From the IMG/VR virus record IMGVR_UViG_3300018430_001101, positions 1 through 64,000 of that record: a DNA stretch of 64,000 nt. One strand, given 5' to 3'. Origin of the DNA: a virus. Each line of letters starts with the position of its first letter. Positions within the stretch are counted from its first letter, which is position 1. A program made the translations under genes and the position numbers. Shown piece after piece: positions 7,562-63,679 of the stretch. The notes beneath the pieces were generated by a model. The model was not told the DNA's origin. It saw nothing but the letters and a program-made list of their open reading frames with translations, and ran no database searches.

Positions 7562-8026
7562 TTAATCTCCCAGCAGCTCGTCCATCTCGTCCGTATGCCC
7601 GCCGTTCCCCTCGGCGATGATCCGGCTCCTGGCGGAGGGGGTGAGCCCCATCTGCTCCGCGCATCGGGTCATCAGCCTCGCGTAGTTCTGCGCGATGGCG
7701 ACCTGCGGGAACTGCTGCGGGTACCTTGACGGGGTCATGTAAAAGAGGCCCCGCTCGGACAGGAAGTCCTCTGCCTGCTTCCACCTTGCGTAGGCGAGGC
7801 AGTAGGTGGCAAACACGCCCATGTCCAGTTCCGTGAGGACGCCCAGGGCTTCGAGCTTTTTCGAGAGCCTTCGCCATTCCTTCTTTCCCTCGGCGGGCAG
7901 CCACTTCGGGCACGGCGGCGCTTTCCTTACCGGCATCGGCTCCGCCCTGTTCAGCTCCCGCTTGCCGGGGTTCCCTTCAAGTACCTTGATCGCCGTCGGC
8001 GTCGGCTTCCTCCCCCTCTGCGCCAT
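7562..8026 (-). CDS. terS: Terminase small subunit, P27 family
   Basis: N-terminus MAQRGRKPTPTAIKVLEGNPGKRELN matches P27-family signature (GRKP.P...K.L.GNPGKR); SD GAGGAGG upstream; immediately upstream of terL. Confidence 0.8.
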   Translation of the reverse strand: MAQRGRKPTPTAIKVLEGNPGKRELNRAEPMPVRKAPPCPKWLPAEGKKEWRRLSKKLEALGVLTELDMGVFATYCLAYARWKQAEDFLSERGLFYMTPSRYPQQFPQVAIAQNYARLMTRCAEQMGLTPSARSRIIAEGNGGHTDEMDELLGD

Positions 8027-15506: not shown

Positions 15507-16061
15507 TCACCTGCCATCGGTTCCTGCCTCGTAATCCGCCAGCCACGCATCCGCAGCCGCATACCCGATGCTGTCCTCGAGGGCTCTGTGGAGAGGTCCT
15601 TTTTCAAATCCCCACCGTCCATAGCCTCCGTCAAGGAGCCGGTAGTACTCTGCGGAAGGCGCTCCGAGGGGCCTGTCCTCGCGGAGGATGTACGCGATGC
15701 ACTTCCTGGGCTTTTTCAAAGTCCTGCCCGAAAGGCCCTTCACCTTCAGCAGGAACTCCCTCTTGTAGTACCATTGCGGGCATCCCTCATAATAGTCGAG
15801 CCTCGCCTCGTCGCTCTCCGTCATGCGGTAGATGGCGAGCGGGACCCGGCTGTTGGCGTCCTGCTCGATGGTGGCGTAGAACCCGGAGGCGCTCCTTTTG
15901 AACAGGAGCCTCCATCCTTCGAGCACGGCCGTGCCGATGGGCTTCGAGCGCGGGCACCTCGCTTTCATCCTCTCCAGGTCCAGGTTGCTGCCGTATGCCG
16001 CGTAGAAGACCTCCCCGTTCCCGCCGTTCCAAAACCTCATGTTCTTCCAGATGCCGTCCAT
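15507..16061 (-). CDS. Gamma-glutamyl cyclotransferase-like (GGCT/AIG2 fold) protein 2
   Basis: VFYAAYGSNLDLERM and RLDYYEGCPQWYYKREF; start at ATG 16061 preceded by GAGGAGG. Confidence 0.65.
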   Translation of the reverse strand: MDGIWKNMRFWNGGNGEVFYAAYGSNLDLERMKARCPRSKPIGTAVLEGWRLLFKRSASGFYATIEQDANSRVPLAIYRMTESDEARLDYYEGCPQWYYKREFLLKVKGLSGRTLKKPRKCIAYILREDRPLGAPSAEYYRLLDGGYGRWGFEKGPLHRALEDSIGYAAADAWLADYEAGTDGR

Positions 16062-16183
16062 CGCCTTGTCCTCCTCTGCCACGCCGTTGTCCGCAGTTTC
16101 CGTTCCTTTGAAATCCGTCTGCCTCCCATCCCTTCCCCGCCGGCACGTCCTCCGGCGGGGCTTCCCTTCTGCCTGCCCTGCGC

Positions 16184-17119
16184 TCAGACTCCGTGCCGCC
16201 ATGCGCTGCTCCCCTCGAAGTTCCTCAGGAAGTATTCCCTCGCTGTCTTGAATTCGTCCCCGATGAATCCGAGGCGGAGCATGAAGCATCTGAACCCGTA
16301 GGTCTCGTTGTCGCGCTGGCCCTTTTTAGGGCTTGCGTACCTGACCTCCTTGGCAAGCTCGCTGAGCGCGAGGCAGAGCTGGATCATGGCCCGCAGCTGC
16401 CCGGCATGAAGGCCGCCTTTTCTGCCGTTCCCTGCAGAGTCAAAGTTAAAACAGCGGAATTCGATTGTGTGGAACCTCGTGAAGTAGCTGTGCAGGTTGC
16501 ACATCCTGTACCGCGTCTGTGAGTAATGGCCGTTCTCGACCGGGCCGTTGTACCAGCACCTTGCAAGGGCCGCCTTCGTCTTCGGCTTCGTCCTGTTAAG
16601 GCGTTCGAGGAAATCCGGGTCGACCGTGCGGCAGTAGTTCTGCTCCCTCGCCCTGCTGACCTCGACCGCTTTCAGGAGCTGGTCTTCATGCGCCGCCATG
16701 AGGTTGACCAGGTTGCGGATCGTGGCAGGCGTATGCCCGTCCCCTCCGATGTGGATGTGAATTCCACACATGTGCTCCTTGTCGCTTTTCCCTCCCGCGT
16801 GCCTGATCTGGCGGATCAGCTCCTGCAGGGTTTCCATGTCCGCGTACCGGAGGACCGGCGTCACAAGTTCGCAGCGTTCCTCGTCCCTGTCCGCCCGGAT
16901 GCTCGAATCCCTCTGGAACTTCCATTCGCGGCCCTGCGCGTCCCATGCGCTCCAGGTCTGGTAGCCGTTGGCGTGTGCCGTGTATTCGTACCTGCCGGTT
17001 CCGAAGTACCCTGCGGCCGTCTTTGCCGCGTCCCTCCGGGTGATCCCGTACATCTCGATCTCCGTGCCGAATGTCTGCTGCTTCATGTTCCCGATCTGCT
17101 TCGCTGTCTTCTCTGTCAT
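16184..17119 (-). CDS. Glutamine-synthetase-like amidoligase (Amidoligase_2 / YbdK-GCS2-related carboxylate-amine ligase family)
   Basis: N-terminal TFGTEIEMYG (G.E.E strand characteristic of GS/GCS2-type ligases), MCGIHIHIGGDGH, Arg-rich C-terminal half; 311 aa; AAAGGAG SD; first gene after repeat copy G. Confidence 0.6.
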   Translation of the reverse strand: MTEKTAKQIGNMKQQTFGTEIEMYGITRRDAAKTAAGYFGTGRYEYTAHANGYQTWSAWDAQGREWKFQRDSSIRADRDEERCELVTPVLRYADMETLQELIRQIRHAGGKSDKEHMCGIHIHIGGDGHTPATIRNLVNLMAAHEDQLLKAVEVSRAREQNYCRTVDPDFLERLNRTKPKTKAALARCWYNGPVENGHYSQTRYRMCNLHSYFTRFHTIEFRCFNFDSAGNGRKGGLHAGQLRAMIQLCLALSELAKEVRYASPKKGQRDNETYGFRCFMLRLGFIGDEFKTAREYFLRNFEGSSAWRHGV

Positions 17120-17173
17120 GGCCTGGCTCCTTTCAAATCCCCGCTCCCGGCGGGCGGCTTTTTTTGCTTTTCC

Positions 17174-17250
17174 CCTTTCGGTATGTGCATGTTACCGTCA
17201 GGTGGGGCAGGAGCCAAGTCATAGTTTGAACATATATTTCACAAATATCT
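17174..17250 (-). promoter_or_regulatory. Conserved promoter repeat, copy G (drives amidoligase operon)
   Basis: Plus strand CCTTTCGGTATGTGCATGTTACCGTCAGGTGGGGCAGGAGCCAAGTCATAGTTTGAACATATATTTCACAAATATCTG; -10 variant TAACAT. Confidence 0.6.
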
Positions 17251-17422
17251 GTGTTTTGTGACGCCATGTATTTGTGCAGTTTATGGCGGTTTTTCCGGGG
17301 ATCTGTTGATAGTTTTCCGGCAGTCCGGGCTTGTTTTTTCGGCGGTTCCGGCCGCCTTTCTCCCACAGTGTCCGTGGCGGCATCGTTAATTAGTTGTCAA
17401 TCCCCGGCGATGGGCGCAATGG

Positions 17423-18514
17423 TCACACTGCCGGAGCCTCAGCATTCTCTGCCGTGTCAGTGGTGCCTTCGGTTTCTGTGGCTTCCACAGCGTCTTCGGC
17501 AGGAGCGGATCCGAAAGCATCTGCTGCGGCCGCGGCCCTCGCCGCCAGCCTCTTCTGCTTCGCTTTCTCGGCATCCTCCGGAGTTCGGAACGCGCTGTGC
17601 CCTGCAAGGGGATCCAGCAGGATCCTGCGCGCTTCCCTGTATTCCCCTCCGCCCATGCCGATGCGTACCATCCACACCCGGAAGGAGTACTTCTCGTTCG
17701 TGTCATCCACGGCCTTGGCAGCGATCCGTTTCTGCCGCAGGGCTGCCGAGTTGATCCTCTCCGCAAGCTGCATGAAGGCCTTCGTCTTTTCCGGCTCATC
17801 CGCCTGCGGGAATCCCGTGAAGATGACTTTCTCAGGTGTCAGCACGAGGCCGGTCATGGAAGGCCCGCCGGTGCTGTCCTCATACATCCCGACTGCCCTG
17901 CGGAAGTCCTCTGCGGTGTAGAGATCCCCGGCTTCATCCAGGGCTTTCAGGAGGCCCGCGTTGATGCCGAAATGACCGCCCGTTGACCTGGTAAGGAGCT
18001 TCCCCCTGCTGTAGATGGTGTTCACGAGGTTCCGCAGGGTCTGTGCGTTGTGGCTGCCCGCAGGCAGGCTGATTGCAAGGTCGTAGATGGCATTGTAGTC
18101 ATAAGGCTGTTCTTCCATGCGGTCCTCTACCTTCCCTGACGCACCTTCGCCCTCTTCGGTTTCTGCTTCCACGGCGGGTTCACCTTCCGGGACGGCCTCT
18201 TCTTCCACAGTAGTCTGCTCCTCTGCCTCAGTGGTCTGGTCTTCTGTGGTCTGCTTCTTTGACTCTGCGGCGTGTGCCTCAGTCGCCGGCGTCTCTCCGG
18301 CTTCGATCAGTCCTTCGTCGATCAGCGTCTGGAGGATCTGCCAGTCCGCTTTGTCCTCTTCGGCCGTGAGCCTGCCGTCCATCTCGATGGCGTAGTCCCC
18401 GACCAGGTAGGCGCACCTCGGGACGTATGTGTAAACCGCCTTTGTCCCTGTCAGTTCCTCCAGCCGCTTCTTTACGGCTTTCCTGTCATCCACTTTCTTT
18501 CTGAATTCCAGCAT
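17423..18514 (-). CDS. Hypothetical protein (363 aa) with acidic linker
   Basis: ATG 18514 after AAAGGAGACG SD; no family recognised. Confidence 0.45.
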   Translation of the reverse strand: MLEFRKKVDDRKAVKKRLEELTGTKAVYTYVPRCAYLVGDYAIEMDGRLTAEEDKADWQILQTLIDEGLIEAGETPATEAHAAESKKQTTEDQTTEAEEQTTVEEEAVPEGEPAVEAETEEGEGASGKVEDRMEEQPYDYNAIYDLAISLPAGSHNAQTLRNLVNTIYSRGKLLTRSTGGHFGINAGLLKALDEAGDLYTAEDFRRAVGMYEDSTGGPSMTGLVLTPEKVIFTGFPQADEPEKTKAFMQLAERINSAALRQKRIAAKAVDDTNEKYSFRVWMVRIGMGGGEYREARRILLDPLAGHSAFRTPEDAEKAKQKRLAARAAAAADAFGSAPAEDAVEATETEGTTDTAENAEAPAV

Positions 18515-18798
18515 GTTCGTCTCCTTTCTTTCTGCGCTGCCTGCCGGACATCCCCGGTGCCGCCGGGAACCTTCCATCCCCGGTGCCGGCCTTCCGCAGG
18601 CGCTTGTCTTTGGGTAGTGTATTAATCACTCTGAACCACCGTATTATCAAGCGGAAAATGTGGGATTCTGCGCAGGTTCGGGATGTTCTGCGTAATGCAC
18701 AAAATAGTCCAGCACAGACTGGCAGATAGTCACAGTCTTTGAACCACAACGTCGCTATCGTCACAGCCTGTGCCGGATGGAGCCGGAGCGCCGCACGG

Positions 18799-21951: not shown

Positions 21952-22658
21952 TCACACATACTCGACGCACCTGTCCGACTTCTGGAATACCCAGAAATAT
22001 GAATGGAACTTCCTCGCGTGCTCCTGGTTCTTCCTCTGCCAGTCCGCGACCAGGCGGTTCTTTGCAAGCAGGATGAACAGGTCCTTCGGGTAGAATCCCG
22101 CCTCCACTGCCTGTTCCATCACGAACACATGGGAGAAGTACTGCTTCCCGCTGCTCACCTTGTCCTGGCATTTGAAGATCAGGATGCCGCCGGGTCCAGC
22201 ACCCGGTATGCTTCCCGGATGGCGTCCCTGTACATCCTGTGCAGGCTCTTTTCATCCGGGTACACGCCGAAGCGCCGGTTGATCCGGTTGCTGCCGGTCC
22301 GGCCTCCTCCTTCCAGGCAATGGCCTTCAGCCATCCCCTGTCCTTCCGGCAAGGGCTGGCAGGCTTCCAGCGACGGGCCCTTCGCCGCGAGGAACGGCGG
22401 GTCGAGCATCATGCACGCTATGCTCCGGTCTGCAAGCGGGAGGTGCCGCGCGTCCGCCCTTGCGACGCCCCCAGCCTGCGGCCTTATGTCGAAACACAGT
22501 GCGGGGCGCCCTATGCCGGTGCCATCGTAAAAGGCTCCCGTGCTGAAGGTCGGGTCGCAATCAATCCTCCCTCCGGGCACATGGAGCCTTATGATGTCCT
22601 TTATGATCTGCGCCTGGTCATAGCCGGTGCTCTTTACCAGGCCGCGTGTTTCCGTCAC
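21952..22658 (-). pseudogene. Frameshifted, C-terminally truncated N6/N4-type DNA methyltransferase remnant
   Basis: ORF 22179..22658 has motif IV context ADARHLPLADRSIACMMLDPPF and ...REAYRVLDPAAS*; the continuation GGILIFKCQD...GFYPKDLFILLAKN (catalytic-region motifs) is in the -1 frame (ORF 21952..22158). No HPT.KP / DPF.GSGTT C-terminal block before the C5-MTase start at 21915. Confidence 0.5.
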
Positions 22659-23575
22659 TCCGGCTCCCGGGCCTCCGCCGTACCCACGTTGCCAGACACA
22701 TCCCCGGTGTCCCCGAGAAAGCCGCCCGCATCAAAGAGGGGAATGGCGCCTCCTGTGATGGCGGGGAGCTTCCCGTCCCATGCGGATGCCTTTTTCATCT
22801 CGATCAGCTCCGGCGTCAGGCTCTCGCGGATGAGCCTGTTCGCTTCTGACTCCGCTTCCGCTGCGATGCGGGTCTGCTCGGCCTTCCCCTCGGCTTCGAG
22901 GATCCTGACCTGCTTCTTCGCCTCCGCGTCGGCGACCTTCGTCTCGTTCTCGATCTTCGCCTTTGCCTGCTCCTGGGCGGCGATGGACTTTGCCTGGATC
23001 GCGTCGTTGTACTTTTCGTCGAAGTCCATGTCGGGGATCGTCACCTTGCAGACGCGCACGGTCTCTTCCCCATACTTCCCGTCAAGTGAGGCGGCGAGCT
23101 TCTCCTGGACGAGCGGCTCGATCTTCGAGCGGTCGGTCACGTCCTTCGGGGAAAGCTCCACCATGGCGGACTTGACGGACGAGCCGACGAGCGGCTCCGT
23201 GATCAGGTGGTTCCTGTAGTCCGCCACGTTGGCGAATATCCACACTGAACGCTCCGGCAGGATCTGGTAGGTCACCGTCACGCCTTCCGCGTAGACCGGG
23301 GTCTTGTCGTCGGTCTCGCCCCAGATCTGGCCCTTCACGGTGAAGTCCTGCTGCTTGTTGTTCACGCGGCTCACGTCCTCCACGAAAGGCGCCGTGATGA
23401 TCAGCTGCCCGCTCTGGACGGGCTTCTCATCAATCTGGCCGCATTTCGTGCGGACCCCGGTGTACCCCGTCGGGATGATGTGTACGTTGAAGGCCGCGAA
23501 CAGCACGATGAGCACTGCCGCGGCCAGGATGATCAGGTTTTTAAACTGCCTTGCTGTCTTTGCGATCTTCTTCAT
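22655..23575 (-). CDS. SPFH/band-7 (prohibitin/HflC-like) membrane protein
   Basis: N-terminal TM helix LIILAAAVLIVLFAAF, SPFH-like core, long Ala/Glu/Lys coiled-coil tail. Confidence 0.7.
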   Translation of the reverse strand: MKKIAKTARQFKNLIILAAAVLIVLFAAFNVHIIPTGYTGVRTKCGQIDEKPVQSGQLIITAPFVEDVSRVNNKQQDFTVKGQIWGETDDKTPVYAEGVTVTYQILPERSVWIFANVADYRNHLITEPLVGSSVKSAMVELSPKDVTDRSKIEPLVQEKLAASLDGKYGEETVRVCKVTIPDMDFDEKYNDAIQAKSIAAQEQAKAKIENETKVADAEAKKQVRILEAEGKAEQTRIAAEAESEANRLIRESLTPELIEMKKASAWDGKLPAITGGAIPLFDAGGFLGDTGDVSGNVGTAEAREPE

Positions 23576-23688
23576 ATGGTGTTTATCTCCTCTTGTACAC
23601 TTCACGTCCTTGCATTCATGTCCACTGGATTCCGGTCATACCGGCGTCTGTCACGCTGTCCCATGCTTTCCACGCTGTCCCGGAAGTA

Positions 23689-24966
23689 TCAGCCCGCCTC
23701 CGGCTCGAAGGACGCCACCTCGTCGAACATCAGCTTCTGCCCATCGCGGATGACATAGACGTCGTCGTATTTGCCCCCGTTGTTCTCTATGGCGCGTTTG
23801 ACGATCACGTCCACGAACTTCGGATCAAGCTCGATGCCCCTGCAGACGCGGTCCGTCTCCATGCAGGCGATGAGCGTGGAGCCGCTGCCGAGGAAGGGGT
23901 CGAGGACGATCCCGTTCGTCATGGTGCTGTTTTTGATGGGGTAGCCCATGAGCATCACCGGCTTCATCGTGGGATGCTCTTTGGATGACCTGGGCTTGTC
24001 GTATTCCCACACGGTCGTCTGCTTCCTGTCCGAATACCACTGGTGCCTGCCGCCCTTCTTCCAGCCGAAAAGGCAGGGCTCATGGATCCACTGGTAGGGC
24101 GACCTCCCCAGGACGAGGGAGTTCTTCTTCCATATGCAGCATCCCGAAAGGTAGAACCCGGCCTCTTTGAACGCCTTCCGGAAGTTCAGCCCCTCGGTGT
24201 CCGCGTGCCAGACATAGATGCTCCCGTCATCCGCAAGGTTCTCATGCATGCAGCGGTAAGCGGCAAGGAGGAAGCTGTAAAAATCAGAATCGGGCATGTT
24301 GTCGTTCATGATCTTCCCTGCCGTCTCTTCGACGTCTACATTGTACGGAGGGTCCGTAAGCACGAGGTTTGCCTTCTGCCCGTCCATGAGCCGTCCATAT
24401 GTCTCCGGCCTGGTGGCATCTCCGCAGATGACGCGGTGCTTCCCGATCACCCACAGGTCGCCCTCCCTCGAAAACGCCGGCTGCTTCAGCTCCGATTCCA
24501 CGTCGAAGCCGTCTTCCTTCACGTCCTTGTCGTAGATGTTGGAAAAGAGCGTCTCGATCTCCGCCTTCTCGAATCCCGTGAGGTCCGTGTCGAACTCCAG
24601 CCCCTCCAGGTCTTTCAAAAGGTCTGCCAGCAGTTCCTCGTCCCACTGGCCCGTGATCTTGTTGAGCGCGATGTTCAGCGCCTTCTCGCGGGTCTTGTCC
24701 ACGTCGACCACGGCGCAGGGGACTTCTGTGTAGCCGAGTTCGACCGCCACAGACAATCTCTGGTGGCCCCCCACGATTGTCATGTCGGCGTTGACCACGA
24801 GGGGGTCCGCAAAACCGAACTCCTCGATGCTCTTTTTTATCTTCTCGTACTCTTTGTCGCCGGGCTTCAGCTTCTTGCGCGGGTTGTATTCCGCAGGCTT
24901 AAGCACCGACACGGGCAGGACTTTCAGATCTGCCGTCTTAGTTGCTGCCATCTTAGTTACTGCCAT
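23689..24966 (-). CDS. ParB-like nuclease domain fused to beta-class N6/N4 DNA methyltransferase
   Basis: N-terminal ParB-like segment (LKPAEYNPRK); MTase motifs LVLTDPPYNV, IWKKN, HPTMKP, LDPFLGSGST; AAGGAGGAG SD before ATG 24966. Confidence 0.85.
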   Translation of the reverse strand: MAVTKMAATKTADLKVLPVSVLKPAEYNPRKKLKPGDKEYEKIKKSIEEFGFADPLVVNADMTIVGGHQRLSVAVELGYTEVPCAVVDVDKTREKALNIALNKITGQWDEELLADLLKDLEGLEFDTDLTGFEKAEIETLFSNIYDKDVKEDGFDVESELKQPAFSREGDLWVIGKHRVICGDATRPETYGRLMDGQKANLVLTDPPYNVDVEETAGKIMNDNMPDSDFYSFLLAAYRCMHENLADDGSIYVWHADTEGLNFRKAFKEAGFYLSGCCIWKKNSLVLGRSPYQWIHEPCLFGWKKGGRHQWYSDRKQTTVWEYDKPRSSKEHPTMKPVMLMGYPIKNSTMTNGIVLDPFLGSGSTLIACMETDRVCRGIELDPKFVDVIVKRAIENNGGKYDDVYVIRDGQKLMFDEVASFEPEAG

Positions 24967-25318
24967 CCATCTCCTCCTTTGGCTGTCCATCATCCAGCGG
25001 GTGTGCTTCCCGCAGTTCCATTGCCCGGGCGCGGTTTTTCACCCGTTCCCACTGCATCCTTCGGAGCGTCCGTTCAGGAAGGCGCTTCTTCCTGTGCCTT
25101 TCGGCAAGCAGGGACTGCGCCCGGATCCTCCTGCGCAGTTCAGGATCCGTCACGGAAACAACATGCCTCCGGCCGCAGTAAGGGCAGGCGAAGTATGTGT
25201 ATTCCAGGGCGTCCTCCCTGAGCACCTCAGGCTCCGGCTCAAATGCGCACCCGCAGCCGTCACATCTCACGTTTCTGGCATTCCTGGCATCCCCGACATT
25301 ACCGCCATCCATCTTCAT
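24953..25318 (-). CDS. Zinc-ribbon protein (hypothetical)
   Basis: CDGCGC...CPYCG pairs; start chosen at internal ATG. Confidence 0.4.
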   Translation of the reverse strand: MKMDGGNVGDARNARNVRCDGCGCAFEPEPEVLREDALEYTYFACPYCGRRHVVSVTDPELRRRIRAQSLLAERHRKKRLPERTLRRMQWERVKNRARAMELREAHPLDDGQPKEEMDGSN

Positions 25319-25347
25319 TCCTCCCCTGCCAGACAGGCTGCCGCCAT

Positions 25348-26322
25348 TCACAGGTCCACGTTTTCCGAAATGCAGCAGGCCATGCCGTGCGCATTGCAGA
25401 ATGCCCTGATCCTGAGCTTCAGCACGTTGTCCTTCGTGTATTCCAGGAGGAACCCGCCCATGCCGTGGCTCACGCACCTCTTCATGTGGGACTGATACCA
25501 TTCGGACTGCTTCTTCTCCTGATTTCCGAACTTCCCGGTGCCTTTGTAGCTGGTGATGAGGGAGAAGACTTCCTCCTGGGTAACGCCGTCCACGCACCCG
25601 CAGGAACCGCTGCCGCCTTCTTCCACGATGAACGCGCCAGTAAAGCCCGCCGCCTTCGCTTTTGACAGCATCTTTTCAGCATTTCCCCTCACTGAGAAGG
25701 CTCCTGCCTGGACCCGGTAAACGCCGGCAGCCTGGAGGACCACGGCATTGATCCCTCCTGCCTCAGCTTCCTTCTGCCTGCGTTTTGCGTTCCCTTCCAC
25801 GCTGAAGGCGCCGAGCTGGACCTTGTACAGGGCCTTTCCTCCGTCATTGTCCATGAGCTTTCCGAGGAAGGAACTCCCGCCGTTCACCATGACATAGCCT
25901 CCGAGGGCTTTGATCCTGCCCAGGACGGACTTCACCGCGTTGTACATCGCGGAGGAAGGGTACTCCTCATAAACATCGAGGTTGTCGATCCACCAGCCGT
26001 CGAATCCCTGGGCTTTGACAGCCCTCGCCCTGTCCACGCACCAGTCTCTCGCGGCGGCCTTCCTGAGGTCCAGGTACCTTTCATGGGGCCAGTCATCAAG
26101 CTTTTTCAGGCAGTACGGCTTCAGGGCTTTGTAATACTCCCTCTCGTCAGACACGGATCCGCAGGAAAGGTATCCGAGCACGGTGTATCCCGATGCCTTC
26201 AGCGCTGCCACCTCCGCCTTCGTGTAATCCTCCGGCTCGATGGCAAGGAGCGTCCTGCCCTGCGCTTTCCCGAGTTTTGCTGCCGACACCTTCGTCGTCA
26301 GCGATACGATATACTTGTCCAT
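25348..26322 (-). CDS. Putative glycoside hydrolase (GH114-like TIM-barrel) with two SPOR domains
   Basis: N-terminal domain with GFDGWWIDNLDVYEEY (GH114-like motif, from memory); two SPOR-like repeats (YKVQLGAFSVEGNAKRR..., YRVQAGAFSVRGNAEKMLSKAKAAGF). Confidence 0.55.
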   Translation of the reverse strand: MDKYIVSLTTKVSAAKLGKAQGRTLLAIEPEDYTKAEVAALKASGYTVLGYLSCGSVSDEREYYKALKPYCLKKLDDWPHERYLDLRKAAARDWCVDRARAVKAQGFDGWWIDNLDVYEEYPSSAMYNAVKSVLGRIKALGGYVMVNGGSSFLGKLMDNDGGKALYKVQLGAFSVEGNAKRRQKEAEAGGINAVVLQAAGVYRVQAGAFSVRGNAEKMLSKAKAAGFTGAFIVEEGGSGSCGCVDGVTQEEVFSLITSYKGTGKFGNQEKKQSEWYQSHMKRCVSHGMGGFLLEYTKDNVLKLRIRAFCNAHGMACCISENVDL

Positions 26323-26377
26323 TTGAACCTCCTCTGCCCGGTTTCTATCCTGTGTTCCACTCCCGTCCGGCATCCGC

Positions 26378-26614
26378 CTAACAGATCCCTGCATTGCTTA
26401 ACACCTGCAAGGGCGGTACCCGGAGAGAAATACCGGGATCTGTCCCATATATCCCAGGGGATTCAGGAACCAGTGAAACATAGTCCGCAGTAATCCCGTA
26501 TTTCAGGAGGATATAAAGCAGTACTGCTACGCATGCGGCCAATATGATCAGCGCAAATATTGAAATGCCAGTGAGGACACAGCATTCTGCTTCGAAGGCA
26601 GCTGCCGGACTCAT
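26378..26614 (-). CDS. Small membrane protein (one TM; holin-like candidate)
   Basis: ISIFALIILAACVAVLLYILL hydrophobic helix. Confidence 0.35.
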   Translation of the reverse strand: MSPAAAFEAECCVLTGISIFALIILAACVAVLLYILLKYGITADYVSLVPESPGIYGTDPGISLRVPPLQVLSNAGIC

Positions 26615-26704
26615 TTTCCAAGTCCTTTCGCCCGTCCTTATGATTGATCCCCTGCTTCTGCACATGCCGCACCTCCTTCACATCCGCCCTTCTGCTGATG
26701 ATCT

Positions 26705-28432
26705 TCACTTCCTGAACGTCCTGCTCAGGTTCCCTTTGCTACAGGACAGCTTCATCGTCCCAGGCAGGCAGTCGATGTAAACATCCCCGTTTTCGTGGTT
26801 CCTTGCGACCACGGCTCCCACGGCTTCGAGGCGTTTCCTCGTAGTCCCGCGCCCGGACCGCTCCGCATGGTGGTAATTGCTGAAGGCCACACGAGGCCTG
26901 ACGGCCCTGCAGATGGTCTCGTTGCACGCATTCGCATCACCATGCCACTGGCACTTCATGATGTCCGCCTTAAGATCCTTCAAGCTCTTCACGAGGAGGT
27001 TATTCCCCTCGTTCTGCAAATCGCCAGCGGAGTGGTACACCCACCCGTTGAGCGTCACGCGCAGCACCACTGACTCGTTGTTGATGAAGTGATGGCTGTC
27101 GTGTTCCTTCAAAGAGGCGGCAGGGCACTGGTACACACACCTGAAATGCATGTTTCCGATGGAGAACTCCGTCCCCGCCTTGACGTAATGCCCGGCCGCC
27201 TTTTTATACTGGCTGCGGAGCGCGTTCCCGTAGGTCTTCTGGTATTTATCCACCTCAGCAGGATCGGGGACATAAATGTCCTTCACCCCGAACTCCCTGA
27301 CCATCGCGCTGGTGCCGCCGTAATGGTCTCCATGGGCGTGGCTGATGATGATGGCATCAAGCTTTCTCACGCCGAGCGCCTTCAGCTTCCTGATGACATT
27401 CGCCGACGACTTGTCCATCGCAGTGTCGATCAGCACCGCATGCTCGACAGTCTTATCATCATCACCGTACTCAATCAGCGCCGTGCAGTCCCCGTACTGG
27501 CTGGATTCACTGCCAGTATCAAAGAAGGCAAGCGCCGCGATCCTGATGCGGTGCGGTACGGCAGGATTCTGGTTATCCACAGTCTCCTGGTTATCCACAG
27601 CCTCCTGCACTGTCGGCGTCCCGGAAGATTCTGCGGGATACTTCGGGCGGATGTACCCGTGGATCGTCCTGCCTGCCCTCACGCGCCGGTGCACCCCGCC
27701 GTCCCGGTACTGGCCGGAAATGTTGTAAGTCCCATCAATGGCAAGCTCCGTGTGGTTGGGCGTCCCGGATCCGTAGAGCACGATGTCGCCGGCCTTGATT
27801 CCAGTGCTCCCGCTGTGCCAGGTGCCGAGCTTCTTCGCGTTGCTTTTCAGGCTTGAGCAGCCCGTGCTCCCGCGCCCGATCAGGTCGATGTAACCTGCCC
27901 GCCAGAAGCAGGAGATGACCGTCTCGGAGCAGAGGGAATCCTTATCCGTCCGCAGGCGGATGCCGCCCACAGCCTTCGCGTATTCGTTGAAATCGGCGAC
28001 GATATCCTTCCTCGCGGTCTTTGAGTCGAGGTATTTCCCCATGCAGCCCAGGACTTTCTGGAATCCCACGGGCTCCGGAGCGGTGCTGGTGGAGCCAGGC
28101 TCCACAGACGAACCGGTTCCTGAGGACGCGTTGGTTCCCGCAGATGAAGCCGGCACTGCGGAAGCCACAGCCGCCTTCATAATCTTCGCATTCGGGAATC
28201 CCGCCGCCCGGACCTGCTCCAGGCGCTTCTTCGCGTTGGCCCCGTTTGCAAACGCACCGCACTGCACCTTCCAGAAGAGGCCGTCCTTCACGCATGCCAC
28301 GGAGATGTCCTCCTTCAGCTTCCCGGACTTCCTGCGGCTCCTGACCGCCGCTTCCACTGCAGCCTTCATCTTCTGCGCGTTCGATTTAGACAGGTACGCG
28401 CCGACCTGCACCTTATACAGGGTGCTCATGCT
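26705..28432 (-). CDS. Multidomain hydrolase: 2x SPOR + papain-like (NlpC/P60- or CHAP-like) Cys/His domain + C-terminal MBL-fold (ComEC/Rec2-like) metallo-hydrolase domain
   Basis: SPOR repeats LYKVQVGAYLSKSNAQK and FWKVQCGAFANGANAKKRLEQVRAAGF; Cys (SLCSETVISCFWRAGY) and His (GTPNHTELAIDG) pair; MBL motif DAIIISHAHGDHYGG plus downstream His/Asp residues. Confidence 0.6.
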   Translation of the reverse strand, partial: SMSTLYKVQVGAYLSKSNAQKMKAAVEAAVRSRRKSGKLKEDISVACVKDGLFWKVQCGAFANGANAKKRLEQVRAAGFPNAKIMKAAVASAVPASSAGTNASSGTGSSVEPGSTSTAPEPVGFQKVLGCMGKYLDSKTARKDIVADFNEYAKAVGGIRLRTDKDSLCSETVISCFWRAGYIDLIGRGSTGCSSLKSNAKKLGTWHSGSTGIKAGDIVLYGSGTPNHTELAIDGTYNISGQYRDGGVHRRVRAGRTIHGYIRPKYPAESSGTPTVQEAVDNQETVDNQNPAVPHRIRIAALAFFDTGSESSQYGDCTALIEYGDDDKTVEHAVLIDTAMDKSSANVIRKLKALGVRKLDAIIISHAHGDHYGGTSAMVREFGVKDIYVPDPAEVDKYQKTYGNALRSQYKKAAGHYVKAGTEFSIGNMHFRCVYQCPAASLKEHDSHHFINNESVVLRVTLNGWVYHSAGDLQNEGNNLLVKSLKDLKADIMKCQWHGDANACNETICRAVRPRVAFSNYHHAERSGRGTTRKRLEAVGAVVARNHENGDVYIDCLPGTMKLSCSKGNLSRTFRK

Positions 28433-29925
28433 TTCACCTCCGTACACACGATCACGGCATTGACCTTCTTCTTCCTCGCCCTGGACGCTTCTGCCTGTGC
28501 CTCCGCTGCGTTCCCGAATGCTCCCAGGCGCACCTTCCACAGGCCGCCGTCCTTCACAGCCGATGCGTTGAATCCCGCCATACGCAGCTGTTCCACGCGC
28601 TTGTCCGCGTTCTTCTGCTTTGCAAAAGCACCGAACTGGACGGCATACACAGTTTTGGTCTGTCCTGCTGCACTGGCTCCATCTTCCGCCGCTCCGGAAT
28701 CGGATCCTGATGCACTGGAGGCACTGGATGCTGCGGAACTGGCAGGCGTGGTATGTGCGTACCTGTCGTAGTACGCCTGCCCGAAGGCAGCCCTGCGCTC
28801 CTTCACTTCCTTCCCCTGGTTGGCGGGCTTCTCATAGCCGGTCAGTACCGCGTCGGACGCTTCCCGCACGCTCGTGGCTTTCTCCAGCTTCTCCAGGACT
28901 CCGCTGTAGTTCCCCCGCAGTTCCAGGCACAGGAAGGAGAGCTGCATGTGCATGTCGTCGATGGGCACGGCCTTTCCGCCCGCGTATCCGCCTTTCGCGT
29001 AGTCCAGCAGGGCCTTCTTCCTCGTGTGGAACGTCCACTGGGCGAGGCCGTATCCCGCCCCGTCGTTCACGAAGTTCATATACGAGCCGTTGTCCACAGC
29101 GGCTGTGTATCCCTTGTCAGTCACCCCCAGGCGCTTTTCGAAGACGTTCTGCAGGTTGTTGGGACGCAGGGCGGACTCCGCATAGAGGTTCCCCATGATG
29201 CCGGCAACGGCATAAGGGCCCATCCCTTTCGCGGACAGGAATTCCCAGATGGCCTTCTCCCGGTCCGCTTCCTCGTTGCCAATCAGCGCGGCTGCGGCAG
29301 TGTTCGGTTCTTCCACAGGCCTGTCCGCATCCTCCCCGGCAGATCCTGCTGCAGCAGAACCATCTGGCTCAGCGGACCCGGCAGAACTCTTCGCAAGCTC
29401 CGCGTTCACTGCGTCCGCAAGCTTCCCCATGCGCCCATAGAGCCAGTCTCCCGGACACGATTTATTTGCAAACCACCGGTGGACTGTGAGCACCATCTCG
29501 CCGTCCTTCGGCTGGTAGGCGAGCGCCGTCTTTTTATCCCCGAACCAGATCAGCCGGTCCTTGCCGTACCTCCGGCAGATGTCCGTGCAGAGCGCCACAA
29601 GGGATGCCCACACCCTGCTGTTCATCGTGTACGGGGCCGACGTCCCGCTTGCGCACTCGATGGTGATGGCCCTGTTGTCGTTGTCCGCGGAAGAACTGCA
29701 CCACGACTGGTTCTTCTCGTCCACATACAGCCCGATCTCGCCGTCCGTCCCGATGCCATAGTTGGACGATGCCTGGTAAGAACTGCGGGCAAATAAACTG
29801 CCGCACTGCTTCGCGGTCAGCTGCCCGACCATGCAGTGCGGCGTGATCCGCGTCACCTTATATGCCCTCGCCCCCGAGTGGTTCGGGGAGGGGACTGATA
29901 CTGTTGCCAGCCTGCTGTTGCCCAT
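28426..29925 (-). CDS. Endolysin-like: N-acetylmuramoyl-L-alanine amidase (Amidase_2/PGRP) + phage-tail-lysozyme-like domain + 2x SPOR
   Basis: SPNHSGARAYKVTRITPHCMVGQ (amidase_2), GIMGNLYAESALRPN...GYGLAQWT (lysozyme-like), C-terminal SPOR repeats; GGAGGA SD. Confidence 0.75.
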   Translation of the reverse strand: MGNSRLATVSVPSPNHSGARAYKVTRITPHCMVGQLTAKQCGSLFARSSYQASSNYGIGTDGEIGLYVDEKNQSWCSSSADNDNRAITIECASGTSAPYTMNSRVWASLVALCTDICRRYGKDRLIWFGDKKTALAYQPKDGEMVLTVHRWFANKSCPGDWLYGRMGKLADAVNAELAKSSAGSAEPDGSAAAGSAGEDADRPVEEPNTAAAALIGNEEADREKAIWEFLSAKGMGPYAVAGIMGNLYAESALRPNNLQNVFEKRLGVTDKGYTAAVDNGSYMNFVNDGAGYGLAQWTFHTRKKALLDYAKGGYAGGKAVPIDDMHMQLSFLCLELRGNYSGVLEKLEKATSVREASDAVLTGYEKPANQGKEVKERRAAFGQAYYDRYAHTTPASSAASSASSASGSDSGAAEDGASAAGQTKTVYAVQFGAFAKQKNADKRVEQLRMAGFNASAVKDGGLWKVRLGAFGNAAEAQAEASRARKKKVNAVIVCTEVKA

Positions 29926-30007
29926 GCTTTATCCTCCATCATTCCTTCACTGTCATGCTATTCATCACTTCCAGACCTTCATCATCAGGTTTTCCCACGC
30001 CTGCATG

Positions 30008-30427
30008 TCACCAATCTTCCGCTTCCGCTCCGGCTGGTTCTGTTTTCACCGCCCGCCCTTTGTTGGCGCAGGCATGGGAGCAGTACTTCCGGGTGTATGA
30101 GTATTCCCGGCTTGCGAGGAATTCCTTCCCGCATGTGGGGCAGACGGCGACCCTCGTCGACTTCCAGTTCTCCGGCTTCGGGTGGCTGTGGTGGTAGTCC
30201 ATGCGGCACTTTGCCGAGCAGAACTTCCTCGGCCTCCCGCGCCCGCTTGTCTCGAAGACCTCCCCGCAGACCGGGCAGACCCGCACGAGCGGTCTTGAAA
30301 GGTACTCGTAGCTGTTCCTGCCCGTTGCCTTCATCATGCCGAGGAGCCTCGCCATGTCCTCATTCCTTACATCGGCCAGTCTGTCCGCTTTTGCGTCTGT
30401 TCCCCCTGCAATTCTCACATCGGCCAT
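30008..30427 (-). CDS. Zinc-finger protein (two C4 clusters), hypothetical
   Basis: CPVCG...C..KC and CPTCG...C..AC. Confidence 0.4.
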   Translation of the reverse strand: MADVRIAGGTDAKADRLADVRNEDMARLLGMMKATGRNSYEYLSRPLVRVCPVCGEVFETSGRGRPRKFCSAKCRMDYHHSHPKPENWKSTRVAVCPTCGKEFLASREYSYTRKYCSHACANKGRAVKTEPAGAEAEDW

Positions 30428-31083
30428 GGCCCGTTCCCTCCCCTTCCCCTCTGCCGCCGTGCGGAAGCTTCCACAGCCGCCCGCAGGCCGTCACGCTTTT
30501 TCATCGTTTTTCTCCCTGAAATCCGCATTATTGACTCCATTTCGCGACAGAAGCCGGTCCCGAAAGTTTGCAAATCCCATAATGCACACGAAAATAAGTT
30601 CAAAAACCGTGCCCCATTGAAAAAGGCCGGGATGCATCGCTGCTCCGGCCCTTTCCTTCGGTCCTGTCCTGTTCCCAGCCATTCCTCCGCGTCCTGGAAA
30701 CCATCCCATCCAGGCACAGAGGGCGCAGTTTTATGCGGTTTCCCGCAGTTTCTGCCTTCCTTCGCAAGGGTGCCTGCGGCACCGCCGTCCACAGCGGCGC
30801 CCTTCTGCTTTCCCCATATCGCGTCAAAACCACAGCTCCCATTTCGCGCCGAAAATCCGCAGGTTCTAATTTGCGGAAATATGCGTGAAGGGGGGCGGCG
30901 GTCTGTACGTCTGTTCGGCCGGAAGATATGACGCTGGCCGGAGGGGGCCTACCACATGCGGGTGCGGGAGGGATGCCCGCATACGCCATGCAGGTTCCGG
31001 TTGTGCACAATTGGATTCTGATCTCCTTCAAACACTGCTTTTCCGCTGTTTTCCAAAAAGGCACTTTTGTCGCGACATGGGCA

Positions 31084-31190
31084 TTTACGGCGCATTATGG
31101 AGGGGAATTACGGCGCGAAATGGGGCTGTTTACGGCGCGAAATGAACCGCCCTGAACCTGCATCTTGTGTCTTTCGGACCTGCATCTTGT
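31084..31190. repeat. Direct repeats TTACGGCGC(G/A) x3 and CCTGCATCTTGT x2 in long noncoding gap upstream of antitoxin
   Basis: Seen at 31084-31138 and 31157-31190; candidate operator or divergent promoter region. Confidence 0.4.
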
Positions 31191-31289
31191 ATGCCACTGT
31201 CTGCCTACAAACTCTTCAACTCTCTCCTTGAATCCCCCTCTCCAATCAGGTATAGTTAAACCATCACTGAAGAAAGGAAGGTGCAGGAC

Positions 31290-31523
31290 ATGAGCACTCT
31301 TGAACAGACCGTTTCAATGCTGGAAGCCCTCCCGGAAGAAGACCTGAAAGCCATCCACGATATCACGTATCGTTTTTACATCCACGCCCGCAATCCTTTT
31401 GCTCCCCTGACAAAAAAGCAGATCCTCCAGGATCTTGCAATCTCCAGGGAACAGGCAGCCAACGGGGAGTTCATGGATTTTGATGATGCGATCAGGGAGA
31501 TAAGGGAAAAATATGGTCTCTAA
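31290..31523 (+). CDS. Putative type II antitoxin (partner of ParE/RelE-like toxin)
   Basis: Small acidic protein (C-terminus MDFDDAIREIREKYGL) overlapping downstream toxin gene by 11 nt; SD GGAAGGTG before ATG 31290. Confidence 0.5.
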   Translation: MSTLEQTVSMLEALPEEDLKAIHDITYRFYIHARNPFAPLTKKQILQDLAISREQAANGEFMDFDDAIREIREKYGL

Positions 31524-31839
31524 AGTTGTTATCACCAGGCGCGCCCAGGAGCAGTTGGATGACTACGTCCTGTACGTCCTGCTCGAAAAAGGGAATGCCC
31601 AGGCTGCCGGAAGCATCCTTGATGACGCCGAGCGTACAAAGGCCTCCCTGCTGAATGTTGCGGAAAGCCTCCGCTATTGCGAGGACGAGGATTTAAAGGC
31701 CCTGGGATACAGGAAAATCCTCTTCATGTCCCACGATTACCTGTTCATCTACCGCGTCATTGGATCCACGGCTTACGTTGACGCCACATACCACCAGCTG
31801 CAGGACTATGAAAACCTGTTCAGGACAGAGGTCTTCTGA
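31513..31839 (+). CDS. ParE/RelE-family type II toxin
   Basis: 108 aa, pattern ...LGYRKILFMSHDYLFIYRV... typical of ParE/RelE fold; translational coupling with upstream antitoxin. Confidence 0.6.
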   Translation: MVSKVVITRRAQEQLDDYVLYVLLEKGNAQAAGSILDDAERTKASLLNVAESLRYCEDEDLKALGYRKILFMSHDYLFIYRVIGSTAYVDATYHQLQDYENLFRTEVF

Positions 31840-31895
31840 TTGTTCAGAAGGCCTTTTCCTGTCCCTTCTCCTCCGGATCTGCGTCCTTGCTTTGA

Positions 31896-32129
31896 TCACC
31901 TGTGCATCTCCCTGTGCCGCCTCCTGTCCCACTCCATCGCCGCGAACACGGCAAGGAGAGTGACAAGGAAGACCACGGCGAACAGCGCCGGCACCCAGAA
32001 GGGCGCGAGGACGATGTTCCATCCCCAGCTTACCACGCCGCAGAGCTTGAGGACGACAAAGGCGACGCCGAGCAGTCCCAGGACGCCCACGCCGCCGCTT
32101 GCGCTTACCGTTGTTCTGTTTGCATTCAT
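31896..32129 (-). CDS. Small two-TM membrane protein with charged C-terminus (holin-like candidate)
   Basis: Two hydrophobic helices then DRRRHREMHR. Confidence 0.35.
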   Translation of the reverse strand: MNANRTTVSASGGVGVLGLLGVAFVVLKLCGVVSWGWNIVLAPFWVPALFAVVFLVTLLAVFAAMEWDRRRHREMHR

Positions 32130-32168
32130 CTGGCTTTGTGTCCTCCTCCCTGCTTCCATATGTCTGCG

Positions 32169-32405: not shown

Positions 32406-32417
32406 TGCTTCCCTCCA

Positions 32418-58338: not shown

Positions 58339-58452
58339 TTCGTTGTCCCTCCTTGTGGATGTGTCTGTGGATGATGCGGTTGGTGTTTCGGTTGTATCGG
58401 TTGTCTCCCACTCGGGATGGTTATAGTTTATGCAATTTCATCGCCGAAGAAT

Positions 58453-58500: not shown

Positions 58501-58541
58501 CTTTTCTCTTTTTCTGGTGTAAAATGAGGGATTCATCTCTC

Positions 58542-61762: not shown

Positions 61763-63679
61763 GTGAAATTTCGTCCGGCGGTACTTCGTGCGGCGATAGA
61801 TTTGGCGGTACATCCTATGATACGTGAAGCAAGTTATTACAGATCCGTCAGGGCGGCACTGAATGTCCTTCGCGAAACCGATGCGGACAGTTTTCCAATA
61901 AACCTTAAACGAGTCCTCCGGTTTAGAAACGTGAAGCTGAAAACATATGAAGAAATCGTCAGTACCGGTAAGTACTCCTTGCAGGACTGCTTCACTTTCT
62001 TTGGCGAGGATGGAGCCGCCATTTTCTACCCTGCCGCCGGAAGGTACGTCATTGCCTACAACAGCCATTCCCGCTCCAGCCATCGCAAGCGTTTTACTAT
62101 CGCACACGAACTGGGGCATATCGTGCTTGGCCATCACAGCGAATATGGCGCGCCAGTGCTAAAGCGGTATTTCATTGAGAAACCGTTGTATGATGTCCTC
62201 GAGGACGAGGCGAACTGCTTTGCCAGAAACCTTCTATCTCCGCCTATGGCTGCCAACAGTCTGCTGCGCCTACACGGCTACACCTTCTCGCAATTTGACA
62301 AGAGAAAAGACAGAAACGTGTGGATTCGGGTGCCTGGCGCCGCCGTGGTAAATGACCCACCGCGAGGACTCTCTGATTCCTTTTTCATTCAGAATGCTTT
62401 CTTCATTACCAATGCGGCCGCTGAGACGAGATGCCACTTCCTCAAATCCGACTTAATGTATACTCCGATGGCTGAAGCAGAATCCCTGCTCAGCCGTTTT
62501 CGTTTCACAAGCAGGTGGCGCTGCAGGGCATGCGGCGCTCCGAAGATCGACGGTGCCTCTTACTGCTACAACTGCGGAGAAGAAGGCAGATTCGGATACT
62601 TCTCGAAGAATCCGGAGCCGGAGAGACCAGTGTTCCTCAGATACATGGGCGGTCAGTTCATCTCCTGCCCCTTCTGTGGAAATGGCAGGATCCCCGCCGG
62701 GTCGTACTTCTGTACCGTGTGCGGACAGCCGGTTTCCAATCCGTGCATGCCTGCCGCCGATGTTACGTCAGGATCGGAAACGTTAGGATCGGATACATCA
62801 TGCGCAGGTATAGCAGCGAGGATGCTTCCCCGTCAGCAGGAGGCCCGTCAGGCTGGTAGCGGCACACAAAGGTTTAGCCGTCAGGCAGGCGGCGTGAACA
62901 GCATCAGCCACGCATACCGCAGCCGTGGACATGTATTCTCATACCTGCAGAGGATTTCCTCTGATGCGTCGATACGCTCTGCAACGCACATGAATCCCGT
63001 CGGAGCGAACTACTGCCTCTCCTGCGGAATGCCCACGCTGTATGGACTGATGTATGCTCACGGTTCCAATCCCGACTGTGAGAATCAAGACCAGCCATCT
63101 GGTCTGTCAGGTTCGTCTGATCACCCCGATGCACCTGATCCGCCGCCTGAATATTTTGAATACGGACGCAGGCTCAGGATTGAATCTGCAATCACCCGTT
63201 CCGCTACATACTCTGCGGTGGCGGAGGACAGCAGGAGCGCTATCACTACAGGAGAAATACCAACTGTGAAATACGGACCGAACATTCCTTACGAAGAACA
63301 ATATGACGAGCGGTTCAATGACCGGGTCTTCAAAGTCACCAAATGCCCGAGGTGTCTTAATGAAGACATTGAGGACGATGCGGCGTTCTGCATCATCTGC
63401 GGGATGAGTCTTTTGAACATGTGCGACGGTTACTATGAATCCGGCATCAGCGGAGATCCCATCCAGCACAGCAACCCCTCAAACGCACGATTCTGCCACA
63501 TCTGCGGGTCTCCCACAGCGTACTCAAGGCTCAAGATCCTGCCGCCTTACAGAGTGGCGTTGGAAAAGATGCGGAAAGAGAAAGAGCAGGAAGACCTGCT
63601 GCGCCGGGAACTTGCCGAAAGGGACATCGATCCTGATCTGTTCTTTGATGATGAACCGTTTGAAGGTAGACCTGAATGA
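61763..63679 (+). CDS. ImmA/IrrE-family metallopeptidase with extended C-terminal region carrying at least five CxxC...CxxC zinc ribbons
   Basis: HEXXH motif FTIAHELGHIVLGHH; zinc ribbons CRACG...CYNCG, CPFCG...CTVCG, CLSCG, CPRCL...CIICG, CHICG. Start may be GTG 61763 or ATG 61814. Confidence 0.75.
   Translation: MKFRPAVLRAAIDLAVHPMIREASYYRSVRAALNVLRETDADSFPINLKRVLRFRNVKLKTYEEIVSTGKYSLQDCFTFFGEDGAAIFYPAAGRYVIAYNSHSRSSHRKRFTIAHELGHIVLGHHSEYGAPVLKRYFIEKPLYDVLEDEANCFARNLLSPPMAANSLLRLHGYTFSQFDKRKDRNVWIRVPGAAVVNDPPRGLSDSFFIQNAFFITNAAAETRCHFLKSDLMYTPMAEAESLLSRFRFTSRWRCRACGAPKIDGASYCYNCGEEGRFGYFSKNPEPERPVFLRYMGGQFISCPFCGNGRIPAGSYFCTVCGQPVSNPCMPAADVTSGSETLGSDTSCAGIAARMLPRQQEARQAGSGTQRFSRQAGGVNSISHAYRSRGHVFSYLQRISSDASIRSATHMNPVGANYCLSCGMPTLYGLMYAHGSNPDCENQDQPSGLSGSSDHPDAPDPPPEYFEYGRRLRIESAITRSATYSAVAEDSRSAITTGEIPTVKYGPNIPYEEQYDERFNDRVFKVTKCPRCLNEDIEDDAAFCIICGMSLLNMCDGYYESGISGDPIQHSNPSNARFCHICGSPTAYSRLKILPPYRVALEKMRKEKEQEDLLRRELAERDIDPDLFFDDEPFEGRPE

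Follow-up and report, generated by a model that had tools for sequence, protein, structure and literature searches.

A candidate phage lysis cassette in which an endolysin is accompanied by a SPOR-bearing pair of MBL-fold and GH114-like enzymes

SPOR domains bind denuded glycan strands, with a glutamine at position 8 contacting the glycan (PMC6895207), and their use by phage lysins is on record: they make up 1.3% of the wall-binding domains in Bacillus phage endolysins, with PlyGspY412 as a named example (PMC11674121), and Amidase-SPOR architectures have been reported in gut phage endolysins, the combination of several catalytic domains in one endolysin being common (PMC13284279). Enzymes of the metallo-β-lactamase (MBL) fold act on other polymers, as in Pce, a teichoic-acid phosphorylcholine esterase that is tethered to the wall by a wall-binding module (PMC4929436), and in ComEC, whose MBL domain cuts DNA (PMC12455585). 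Here we analyze a viral stretch of 64,000 nucleotides (positions 1 to 64,000 of IMG/VR record IMGVR_UViG_3300018430_001101; hereafter, the window), in which three co-directional minus-strand open reading frames (ORFs), P1, P2, and P3, bring SPOR together with catalytic domains of both kinds (Table 1). An original prediction, made from the DNA letters alone, had described them as three consecutive cell wall or polysaccharide hydrolases. On balance, we lean toward reading P1-P2-P3 as a lysis cassette in which the endolysin P3 is joined by an accessory two-enzyme module, P2 and P1, probably aimed at a wall glycopolymer other than peptidoglycan.

The pairing of the two accessory enzymes extends well beyond the window. 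We annotated 73 related loci (68 IMG/VR viral contigs, contigs of metagenome-assembled genomes [MAGs], and assembly contigs) by domain queries, and in 61 of the 64 loci with enough flanking sequence to judge coupling, the GH114-like enzyme either shares an ORF with the MBL enzyme or is encoded directly beside it; the two are a conserved accessory pair. Homologues of P2 take the architectures SPOR-MBL, SPOR-NlpC-MBL, SPOR-MBL-GH114, SPOR-NlpC-MBL-GH114, GH114-NlpC-CW_7-MBL, CW_7-MBL, and GH25-CHAP-CW_7-MBL(-GH114). The SPOR lineage is ordered SPOR-[NlpC]-MBL and then GH114, where a GH114 domain fused to SPOR-MBL lacks a SPOR domain of its own and a stand-alone GH114 protein has one, either inserted or N-terminal; the CW_7 lineage is ordered GH114 and then [NlpC]-CW_7-MBL. 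The kind of wall-binding module goes together with the kind of endolysin nearby: among loci with an endolysin at most 2.5 kb away, SPOR-type modules neighbor Amidase_2 endolysins in 30 of 30 cases, and CW_7-type modules neighbor GH25 muramidase endolysins in 11 of 11. Holins recognized by Pfam stand beside the module in 40 related loci, a Phage_holin_4_1 gene lying directly upstream of the endolysin in 21 and a Phage_holin_6_1 gene adjoining the module in 19.

These arrangements bear on an alternative suggested by a rumen virome preprint, in which GH114 is the commonest glycoside hydrolase listed as an “auxiliary metabolic gene” (AMG), present in 30 viral operational taxonomic units with its role unknown (10.1101/2023.03.20.532305). 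That the pair serves carbohydrate use as AMGs is, in our assessment, extremely improbable, given that it is enclosed by holin and endolysin genes, bears modules that bind peptidoglycan, is translationally coupled to the endolysin, and can be fused to GH25 and CHAP lysin domains. In some relatives, such a fusion is a chain of ~1090 amino acids made up of GH25, CHAP, CW_7, MBL, and GH114 (L010 8330..11575, L046 2667..5945, and the 1091-amino-acid P0246), a lysin-like protein with four catalytic domains.

The MBL enzymes form a small subfamily that stands well apart, with only 24 clusters at E <= 1e-30 among 1.84 billion representative proteins, and all 10 of the 10 divergent representatives that were scanned carry either SPOR or CW_7. 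Representative bacterial and archaeal genomes yielded only five true relatives, all of them on 6- to 52-kb MAG contigs of rumen-type assemblies, a result that lends no support to a bacterial housekeeping role. A protein-level search of deposited phage genomes (INPHARED) returned no close homologue, with MBL relatives at no more than 28% identity and none for the GH114 barrel, and a fold search of BFVD with P1 matched viral proteins through its SPOR part only, with no GH114-like barrel.

By its sequence, P3 is a conventional endolysin with amidase and lysozyme-like domains, in keeping with the original prediction. Its Pfam scores are well above the gathering cutoffs (48.9 bits versus 26 for Amidase_2, 104 versus 28.2 for Phage_lysozyme2, and 55.1 versus 21 for SPOR), the domains are joined by Ser/Ala-rich linkers, and the protein falls into the PHROG endolysin family phrog_20388 (E 1e-139). 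All three genes have Shine-Dalgarno sites (GGAGG 8 nucleotides upstream of the ATG in P3) and a high third-position G+C content (GC3; 0.76 to 0.78). The amidase part of P3 is also the only part with DNA matches in INPHARED, at 66 to 72% identity to endolysins of Ruminococcus, Acutalibacteraceae, Oscillospiraceae, and Faecalibacterium phages. This weak similarity to Oscillospiraceae, Ruminococcus, and Faecalibacterium phage lysins, together with the MAG labels, suggests that the host is an anaerobic Firmicute of the rumen or gut Clostridia type.

P2 begins where P3 ends, its ATG overlapping the stop codon of P3 as ATGA, an arrangement from which the two genes appear to be translationally coupled. 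The ORF proposed originally for P2 is real, with the correction that its start is the ATG at 28429 rather than position 28432, from which translation would read SMSTLYK. Pfam recognizes SPOR (37.6 bits versus 21) and Lactamase_B (46.1 versus 22.7) in P2 and finds nothing in residues 95 to 300, even at E <= 1. The original prediction had nevertheless proposed a papain-like peptidase fused to the MBL domain, and this proposal holds: because the homologue P0129 scores 27.1 bits for CHAP (cutoff, 26), the middle domain of the AlphaFold2 (AF2) model of P2 (predicted local distance difference test [pLDDT] score, 86) matches NlpC/P60 hydrolases, and Cys167 and His226 are invariant in all 23 homologues that have the domain, we assign it to the papain-like NlpC/P60 or CHAP fold. 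P2 also matches a second PHROG endolysin family, phrog_21357 (E 5e-6).

Among MBL enzymes, structure comparison places the MBL domain of P2 nearest to ComEC and Pce, both of which are phosphodiesterases, and all of the 31 sequences compared share its metal ligands (H364, H366, D368, H369, H446, D470, H496, and H520). From the model, the domain is a putative binuclear-metal enzyme of phosphodiesterase type in the ComEC/Pce subgroup. Three more specific identities were considered and rejected. P2 is not a ComEC protein, as TIGR00361 reaches 61.2 bits against a cutoff of 190, aligns with the MBL part alone, and finds no competence membrane domain. It is not a Pce orthologue either, having neither a choline-binding Pfam match nor a signal peptide and beginning directly with SPOR. 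The anti-Pycsar family Apyc1 (PF23023), which is listed among the precomputed domains for many MBL homologues, scores 12 to 15 bits against a cutoff of 50 and matches the HxHxDH motif only.

P1 is predicted, from its model, to be a retaining α-galactosaminidase-type TIM barrel. The GH114-like assignment made originally is borne out by a Glyco_hydro_114 (PF03537) score of 63.8 bits (cutoff, 27) and by the AF2 model (pLDDT, 92), which superposes over ~215 to 230 residues on structures of the clan, with fold-match scores of 26.1 for Env-GH191 (9ep5) and 24.9 for TM1410 (both GH191), 23.7 for the PelA hydrolase domain (GH166), and 21.8 for Ega3 (GH114). Identity to these four proteins is 16 to 21%, and the family signals are mixed at that level, with the best fold match in GH191 and a Pfam model named for GH114. 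In the alignment, Asp113 corresponds to the DPDNVD segment of Ega3 and Glu250 to the glutamate of the PelA motif AVES, both residues are invariant in 42 homologues, and the catalytic pairs of the reference galactosaminidases are listed in PMC12054363; we therefore designate Asp113 as the putative nucleophile and Glu250 as the putative acid/base.

The SPOR domain of P1 (50.3 bits versus 21) sits inside the TIM barrel, in the AF2 model between the helix at residues 150 to 160 and the strand at residues 246 to 250. Because the insert splits the barrel, P1 matches only positions 18 to 119 of the Glyco_hydro_114 profile, compared to positions 17 to 227 in SPOR-less fused relatives. In the alignment of relatives the insertion lies between GGYVMVNGG and DGVTQEE; it is missing from P0082, P0104, and P0112, and the domain is N-terminal in P0093. 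TIM-barrel topology would put an insert in this α-to-β loop on the face opposite the catalytic one.

The SPOR (PF05036) fold was confirmed as RNP-like, with a four-stranded sheet backed by two helices and made of two half-repeats. The “paired SPOR domains” of the original prediction are accordingly real as to their presence in all three proteins, which Pfam supports, and mistaken as to their number, each protein having one domain composed of two half-repeats. The same prediction had called SPOR unusual as a targeting module of lysins, a view that is overstated in light of the published cases (PMC11674121, PMC13284279) and of PHROG endolysin families that include SPOR. The three domains are 38 to 43% identical to one another and all keep the conserved glutamine at profile position 8 in strand 1 (VQLGAF, VQVGAY, and VQFGAF), which in P1 is the family-invariant Q169. 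From these sequence features, one SPOR domain is predicted to dock each of P1, P2, and P3 to peptidoglycan. Since SPOR binds denuded glycan strands (PMC6895207), one might suppose that all five catalytic domains act on peptidoglycan, with the barrel as a new hydrolase of denuded or N-deacetylated strands that its SPOR insert would hold and the MBL enzyme removing a peptidoglycan modification. However, the insert in P1 is expected from TIM-barrel topology to face away from the catalytic side, and an amidase, a lysozyme-like enzyme, and an endopeptidase are already present in the cassette. We consider this explanation improbable.

Under the wall-glycopolymer reading, the locus would supply five hydrolytic domains on three proteins that are predicted to be made in the cytoplasm without signal peptides; the translations of P1, P2, and P3 show no hydrophobic leader at the N terminus. 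A holin would release the three proteins, the amidase would remove peptide stems, and the denuded glycan thus produced, being the ligand of SPOR, would recruit or retain all three on the wall. There, the MBL enzyme would cut phosphodiester bonds and the GH114-like enzyme α-hexosaminyl bonds of the same wall-attached glycopolymer, for which a teichoic-acid-like polymer or a secondary wall polysaccharide rich in galactosamine (GalN) or N-acetylgalactosamine (GalNAc) would be candidates. Removal of the polymer would expose the peptidoglycan, and disintegration of the envelope could be completed.

We locate the action of the enzymes at the wall because every polypeptide carries one peptidoglycan anchor, of the type that matches the neighboring endolysin. 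The association of SPOR with amidases fits a recruitment primed by the product of the amidase; the peptide stems survive the action of a muramidase, and the ligand of CW_7 is a stem-bearing muropeptide. The obligate coupling of a phosphodiesterase-type to an α-hexosaminidase-type enzyme makes a single substrate with both bonds the simplest explanation, which might be a glycosyl-phosphate polymer of the teichoic-acid type or a GalN/GalNAc-rich wall polysaccharide anchored through a phosphodiester. The substrate, the sequence of steps, and the need for a holin in the phage of the window are inferences.

Several points weigh against this reading. The evidence is wholly computational. The characterized relatives of the P1 barrel act on the secreted exopolysaccharides Pel and galactosaminogalactan, not on wall-linked polymers (PMC12054363), and the structure closest to the MBL domain of P2 is the nuclease ComEC, not Pce. 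A family annotated as “tail protein,” phrog_7043, contains a related MBL region (E 6e-12). In locus L006 the pair comes after NrdG and has no endolysin beside it, and it is therefore separable from the endolysin. Finally, no recognized holin family was found in the window, which offers two weak holin candidates only, orf95 and an 87-amino-acid protein.

A rival reading has a different target, namely, the matrix of a biofilm or aggregate. Once set free at lysis, the GH114-like enzyme might cut a Pel-like cationic exopolysaccharide of α-1,4-linked GalN/GalNAc while the ComEC-like MBL domain degrades extracellular DNA, which would free the progeny from the matrix instead of attacking the wall. 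Pel binds extracellular DNA, and the strict co-occurrence of the two enzymes would suit such a composite as well; moreover, the Pel-cleaving enzymes Env-GH191 and PelA are among the best matches of the barrel. However, every polypeptide has a SPOR or CW_7 domain whose type follows that of the endolysin, and a diffusible enzyme would need neither; the chain often includes an NlpC/P60 peptidase as well; and around the fourth metal-ligand histidine, the H-G-D-A-N of the MBL family is nearer to the H-H-D-T-N of Pce than to the H-G-S-A-T of ComEC, although this last point is anecdotal. We rank matrix clearing second, behind the wall-glycopolymer reading, and think it unlikely.

The two holin candidates differ in their context. 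The ORF between P2 and P1, orf95, is probably a real gene despite its flat GC3 (0.50, versus ~0.77 in its neighbors), since it has a Shine-Dalgarno site (AGGAGG, 6 nucleotides upstream of the ATG) and conserved homologues in the same position. It has been called as a gene on independent contigs, with homologues at 80% and 63% identity in which the substitutions in the transmembrane segment are conservative. It is limited to close relatives of the window, the two enzyme genes abutting in other relatives, and looks like a recent insertion. Pfam, PHROG, and NCBIfam gave no match to orf95, which may be a holin-like, lysis-accessory, or regulatory protein. The 87-amino-acid protein belongs to phrog_1374 (unknown function), scores 19.9 bits for Phage_holin_3_6 against a cutoff of 28.4, and has a GC3 of 0.80; in L006 its homologue lies apart from the module, and we regard it as a weak holin candidate. 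A tblastn search of the window found no counterpart of the Phage_holin_4_1, Phage_holin_6_1, or DUF7365-type proteins that the relatives encode. In the CW_7 lineage (L066 8825..9178; also L074, L077, L079, L087, and L012), a small coiled-coil membrane protein precedes Phage_holin_6_1 between the MBL and GH25 genes; it scores 25.8 bits for DUF7365 (cutoff, 27) and may act as an additional holin or as a component of the antiholin type.

Table 1. Features of the window, with positions counted from its first nucleotide
Feature	Position	Strand	Residues	Content or placement
Packaging end	small terminase, 7562..8026			Small terminase, intein-bearing large terminase, portal, protease
Large terminase, 906 aa	4766..7486	-		Interrupted by Hint and LAGLIDADG_3 matches
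Amidoligase-family (two) and γ-glutamyl cyclotransferase-like genes	15507..18577	-		Between methyltransferases and packaging genes
C5 DNA methyltransferase, 1038 aa	18799..21915	-		Interrupted by Hint_2, Hom_end, LAGLIDADG_3, and Intein_splicing matches
SPFH/Band 7 (prohibitin-like) membrane protein	22655..23605	-		Between ParB-methyltransferase gene and further methyltransferase gene
Genes after P3-P2-P1				ParB-methyltransferase, SPFH protein, further methyltransferases, then amidoligase and GGCT (γ-glutamyl cyclotransferase) genes
P1, 324 aa	25348..26322	-		Predicted GH114/GH166/GH191-clan (β/α)8 glycosidase + SPOR
P1 barrel, C-terminal part	25351..25596		243-324	
P1 SPOR insert, complete	25615..25836		~163-236	Loop between helix 5 and strand 6
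P1 barrel, N-terminal part	25843..26322		1-160	
orf95	26378..26665	-		One transmembrane segment; between P2 and P1
P2, 574 aa	26705..28429	-		SPOR + NlpC/P60-like + MBL-fold
P2 MBL, putative phosphodiesterase-type domain	26708..27553		293-574	HAHGDH motif
P2 NlpC/P60-like cysteine peptidase	27644..28072		~120-262	Cys167 and His226
P2 SPOR	28169..28426		2-87	First helix lengthened
P3, 499 aa	28426..29925	-		Amidase_2 + Phage_lysozyme2 + SPOR
P3 SPOR	28447..28653		425-493	
P3 Phage_lysozyme2	28762..29262		222-388	
P3 Amidase_2	29446..29859		23-160	
Lar-like gene, then ParE toxin/antitoxin pair (opposite strand), then zinc-finger gene				Between NrdD and P3-P2-P1
ParE-type toxin (108 aa) and small upstream antitoxin-like ORF	31281..31839	+		Between Lar-like gene and lysis genes
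87-aa protein	31896..32159	-		Two hydrophobic segments, charged C terminus; 2 kb upstream of endolysin
Anaerobic ribonucleotide reductase NrdD, probably intein-bearing, 1647 aa	32418..37361	-		After replication block
Replication block				PolA-type polymerase, helicase, primase; after regulators
Regulators	~60-64 kb			First in transcription order

The window holds a phage-type genome that is read mainly on the minus strand. The small terminase gene lies 17.3 kb downstream of the end of the module, which agrees with the original prediction that the module sits far upstream of the structural genes. A position before the packaging genes is conserved in this group of phages, the module being 1.3 to 4.2 kb ahead of the small terminase gene in L003 and L030 to L037; in L005 and other relatives, the same module is placed after the tail genes. 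In phage lambda, too, the lysis genes precede cos and the terminase genes, and the module of the window resembles lambda in standing ahead of its terminase genes. Scans for noncoding features gave no Rfam match (E <= 1) over positions 24900 to 32500 and no more promoters or terminators over positions 24900 to 30600 than in shuffled sequence.

Gene position also bears on whether the enzymes are virion-associated depolymerases that penetrate a capsule or a teichoic-acid layer at infection. Besides the “tail protein” family with its related MBL region, locus L005 could be cited for this, as its fused protein comes after collagen/BclA-like fiber genes. The next genes in L005, however, encode a GH25 endolysin and small membrane proteins, and holins stand beside the module in the 40 loci given above. 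The three genes of the window are flanked by replication genes and DNA-methylation genes and stand 17 kb away from the packaging genes, and no Pfam, PHROG, or fold match links their products to a virion-anchoring or fiber domain. We judge a virion role very improbable.

Other features of the window deserve mention in their own right. At least three of its genes seem to bear inteins: NrdD, which measures 721 amino acids in L006, matches the NRDD profile in three separate stretches, has an Intein_splicing match below the gathering score and a C-terminal glutaredoxin domain, and probably holds one or two inteins; in the large terminase and the C5 DNA methyltransferase, some of the intein-type matches are above and some below the gathering scores. 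The ParE-type pair comprises the sole plus-strand genes in its stretch of an otherwise minus-strand genome. The two amidoligase-family genes (phrog_2443) and the γ-glutamyl cyclotransferase-like gene (phrog_2520) may encode a peptide-ligation or peptide-modification system. At the regulator end (58000 to 62000), G+C falls from ~0.58 to 0.44 to 0.49 and gene orientation switches (plus strand at 61763..63679); the region may represent a module for lysogeny or regulation with a different origin, or a phage/host junction.

If the wall-glycopolymer reading is right, a phosphodiesterase/glycosidase pair directed against wall glycopolymers would join the holin and the peptidoglycan hydrolase in Gram-positive lysis, and the GH114 “AMGs” of the rumen virome would be lysis genes rather than metabolic genes. 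The enzymes could then serve to probe the walls of uncultured Clostridia from the rumen and gut, whose polymers are essentially uncharacterized. For engineered lysins, the SPOR-bearing loop of the barrel would be a ready-made design, and the apparent rule that amidases go with SPOR and muramidases with CW_7 could be put to use.

Compared with known systems, an endolysin with SPOR as its binding module is ordinary, and what is new is the MBL/GH114 pair and the SPOR-in-barrel architecture; among open-access papers and preprints we found none that connects lysis cassettes with GH114-type or ComEC/Pce-type MBL enzymes, which is not proof of absence. P3 resembles the SPOR lysins and autolysins (CwlC of Bacillus subtilis, PlyGspY412 of a Geobacillus prophage, and the gut-phage Amidase-SPOR proteins) in being of the amidase type with a C-terminal SPOR domain, an amidase being the usual partner of SPOR in lysins, and the SPOR domain of CwlC (1x60) is 45% identical to that of P1. 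In contrast to those systems, three consecutive proteins share SPOR here, one of them inside a TIM barrel, and two of the three carry catalytic domains that are not of the peptidoglycan type. Pce, at ~19% identity, is secreted with a signal peptide and choline-binding repeats, whereas the P2 family has no signal peptide and carries SPOR or CW_7. Unlike proteins with the ComEC MBL nuclease domain (PDB 9ic4 and 9vc6), P2 lacks the competence membrane domain and the OB-fold, and its context is a phage lysis cassette. P1 differs from the enzymes of GH114 (Ega3), GH166 (PelA), and GH191 (Env-GH191 and TM1410) in its SPOR insert, in being phage encoded, and in having no signal peptide, and the phage barrel is always partnered with an MBL enzyme. 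The Cpl-7-type GH25 endolysins with CW_7 find their counterpart in the sister lineage of the module, which uses CW_7 beside GH25(-CW_7) endolysins, whereas the lineage of the window has SPOR and an Amidase_2 endolysin.

Mycobacteriophage LysB is a mycolylarabinogalactan esterase, and the spanins of Gram-negative phages are functionally similar to it. They, too, act beside the endolysin as a second lysis component against a layer other than peptidoglycan, which in the present case is hypothetical, and their folds and chemistry are unrelated to those found here. With this parallel in mind, we tentatively propose, while leaning somewhat to the skeptical side, that the MBL and GH114/191-like enzymes constitute a phage-specific two-enzyme “third-layer” lysin of rumen and gut Clostridia walls, anchored by SPOR or CW_7, and a Firmicute counterpart of mycobacteriophage LysB.

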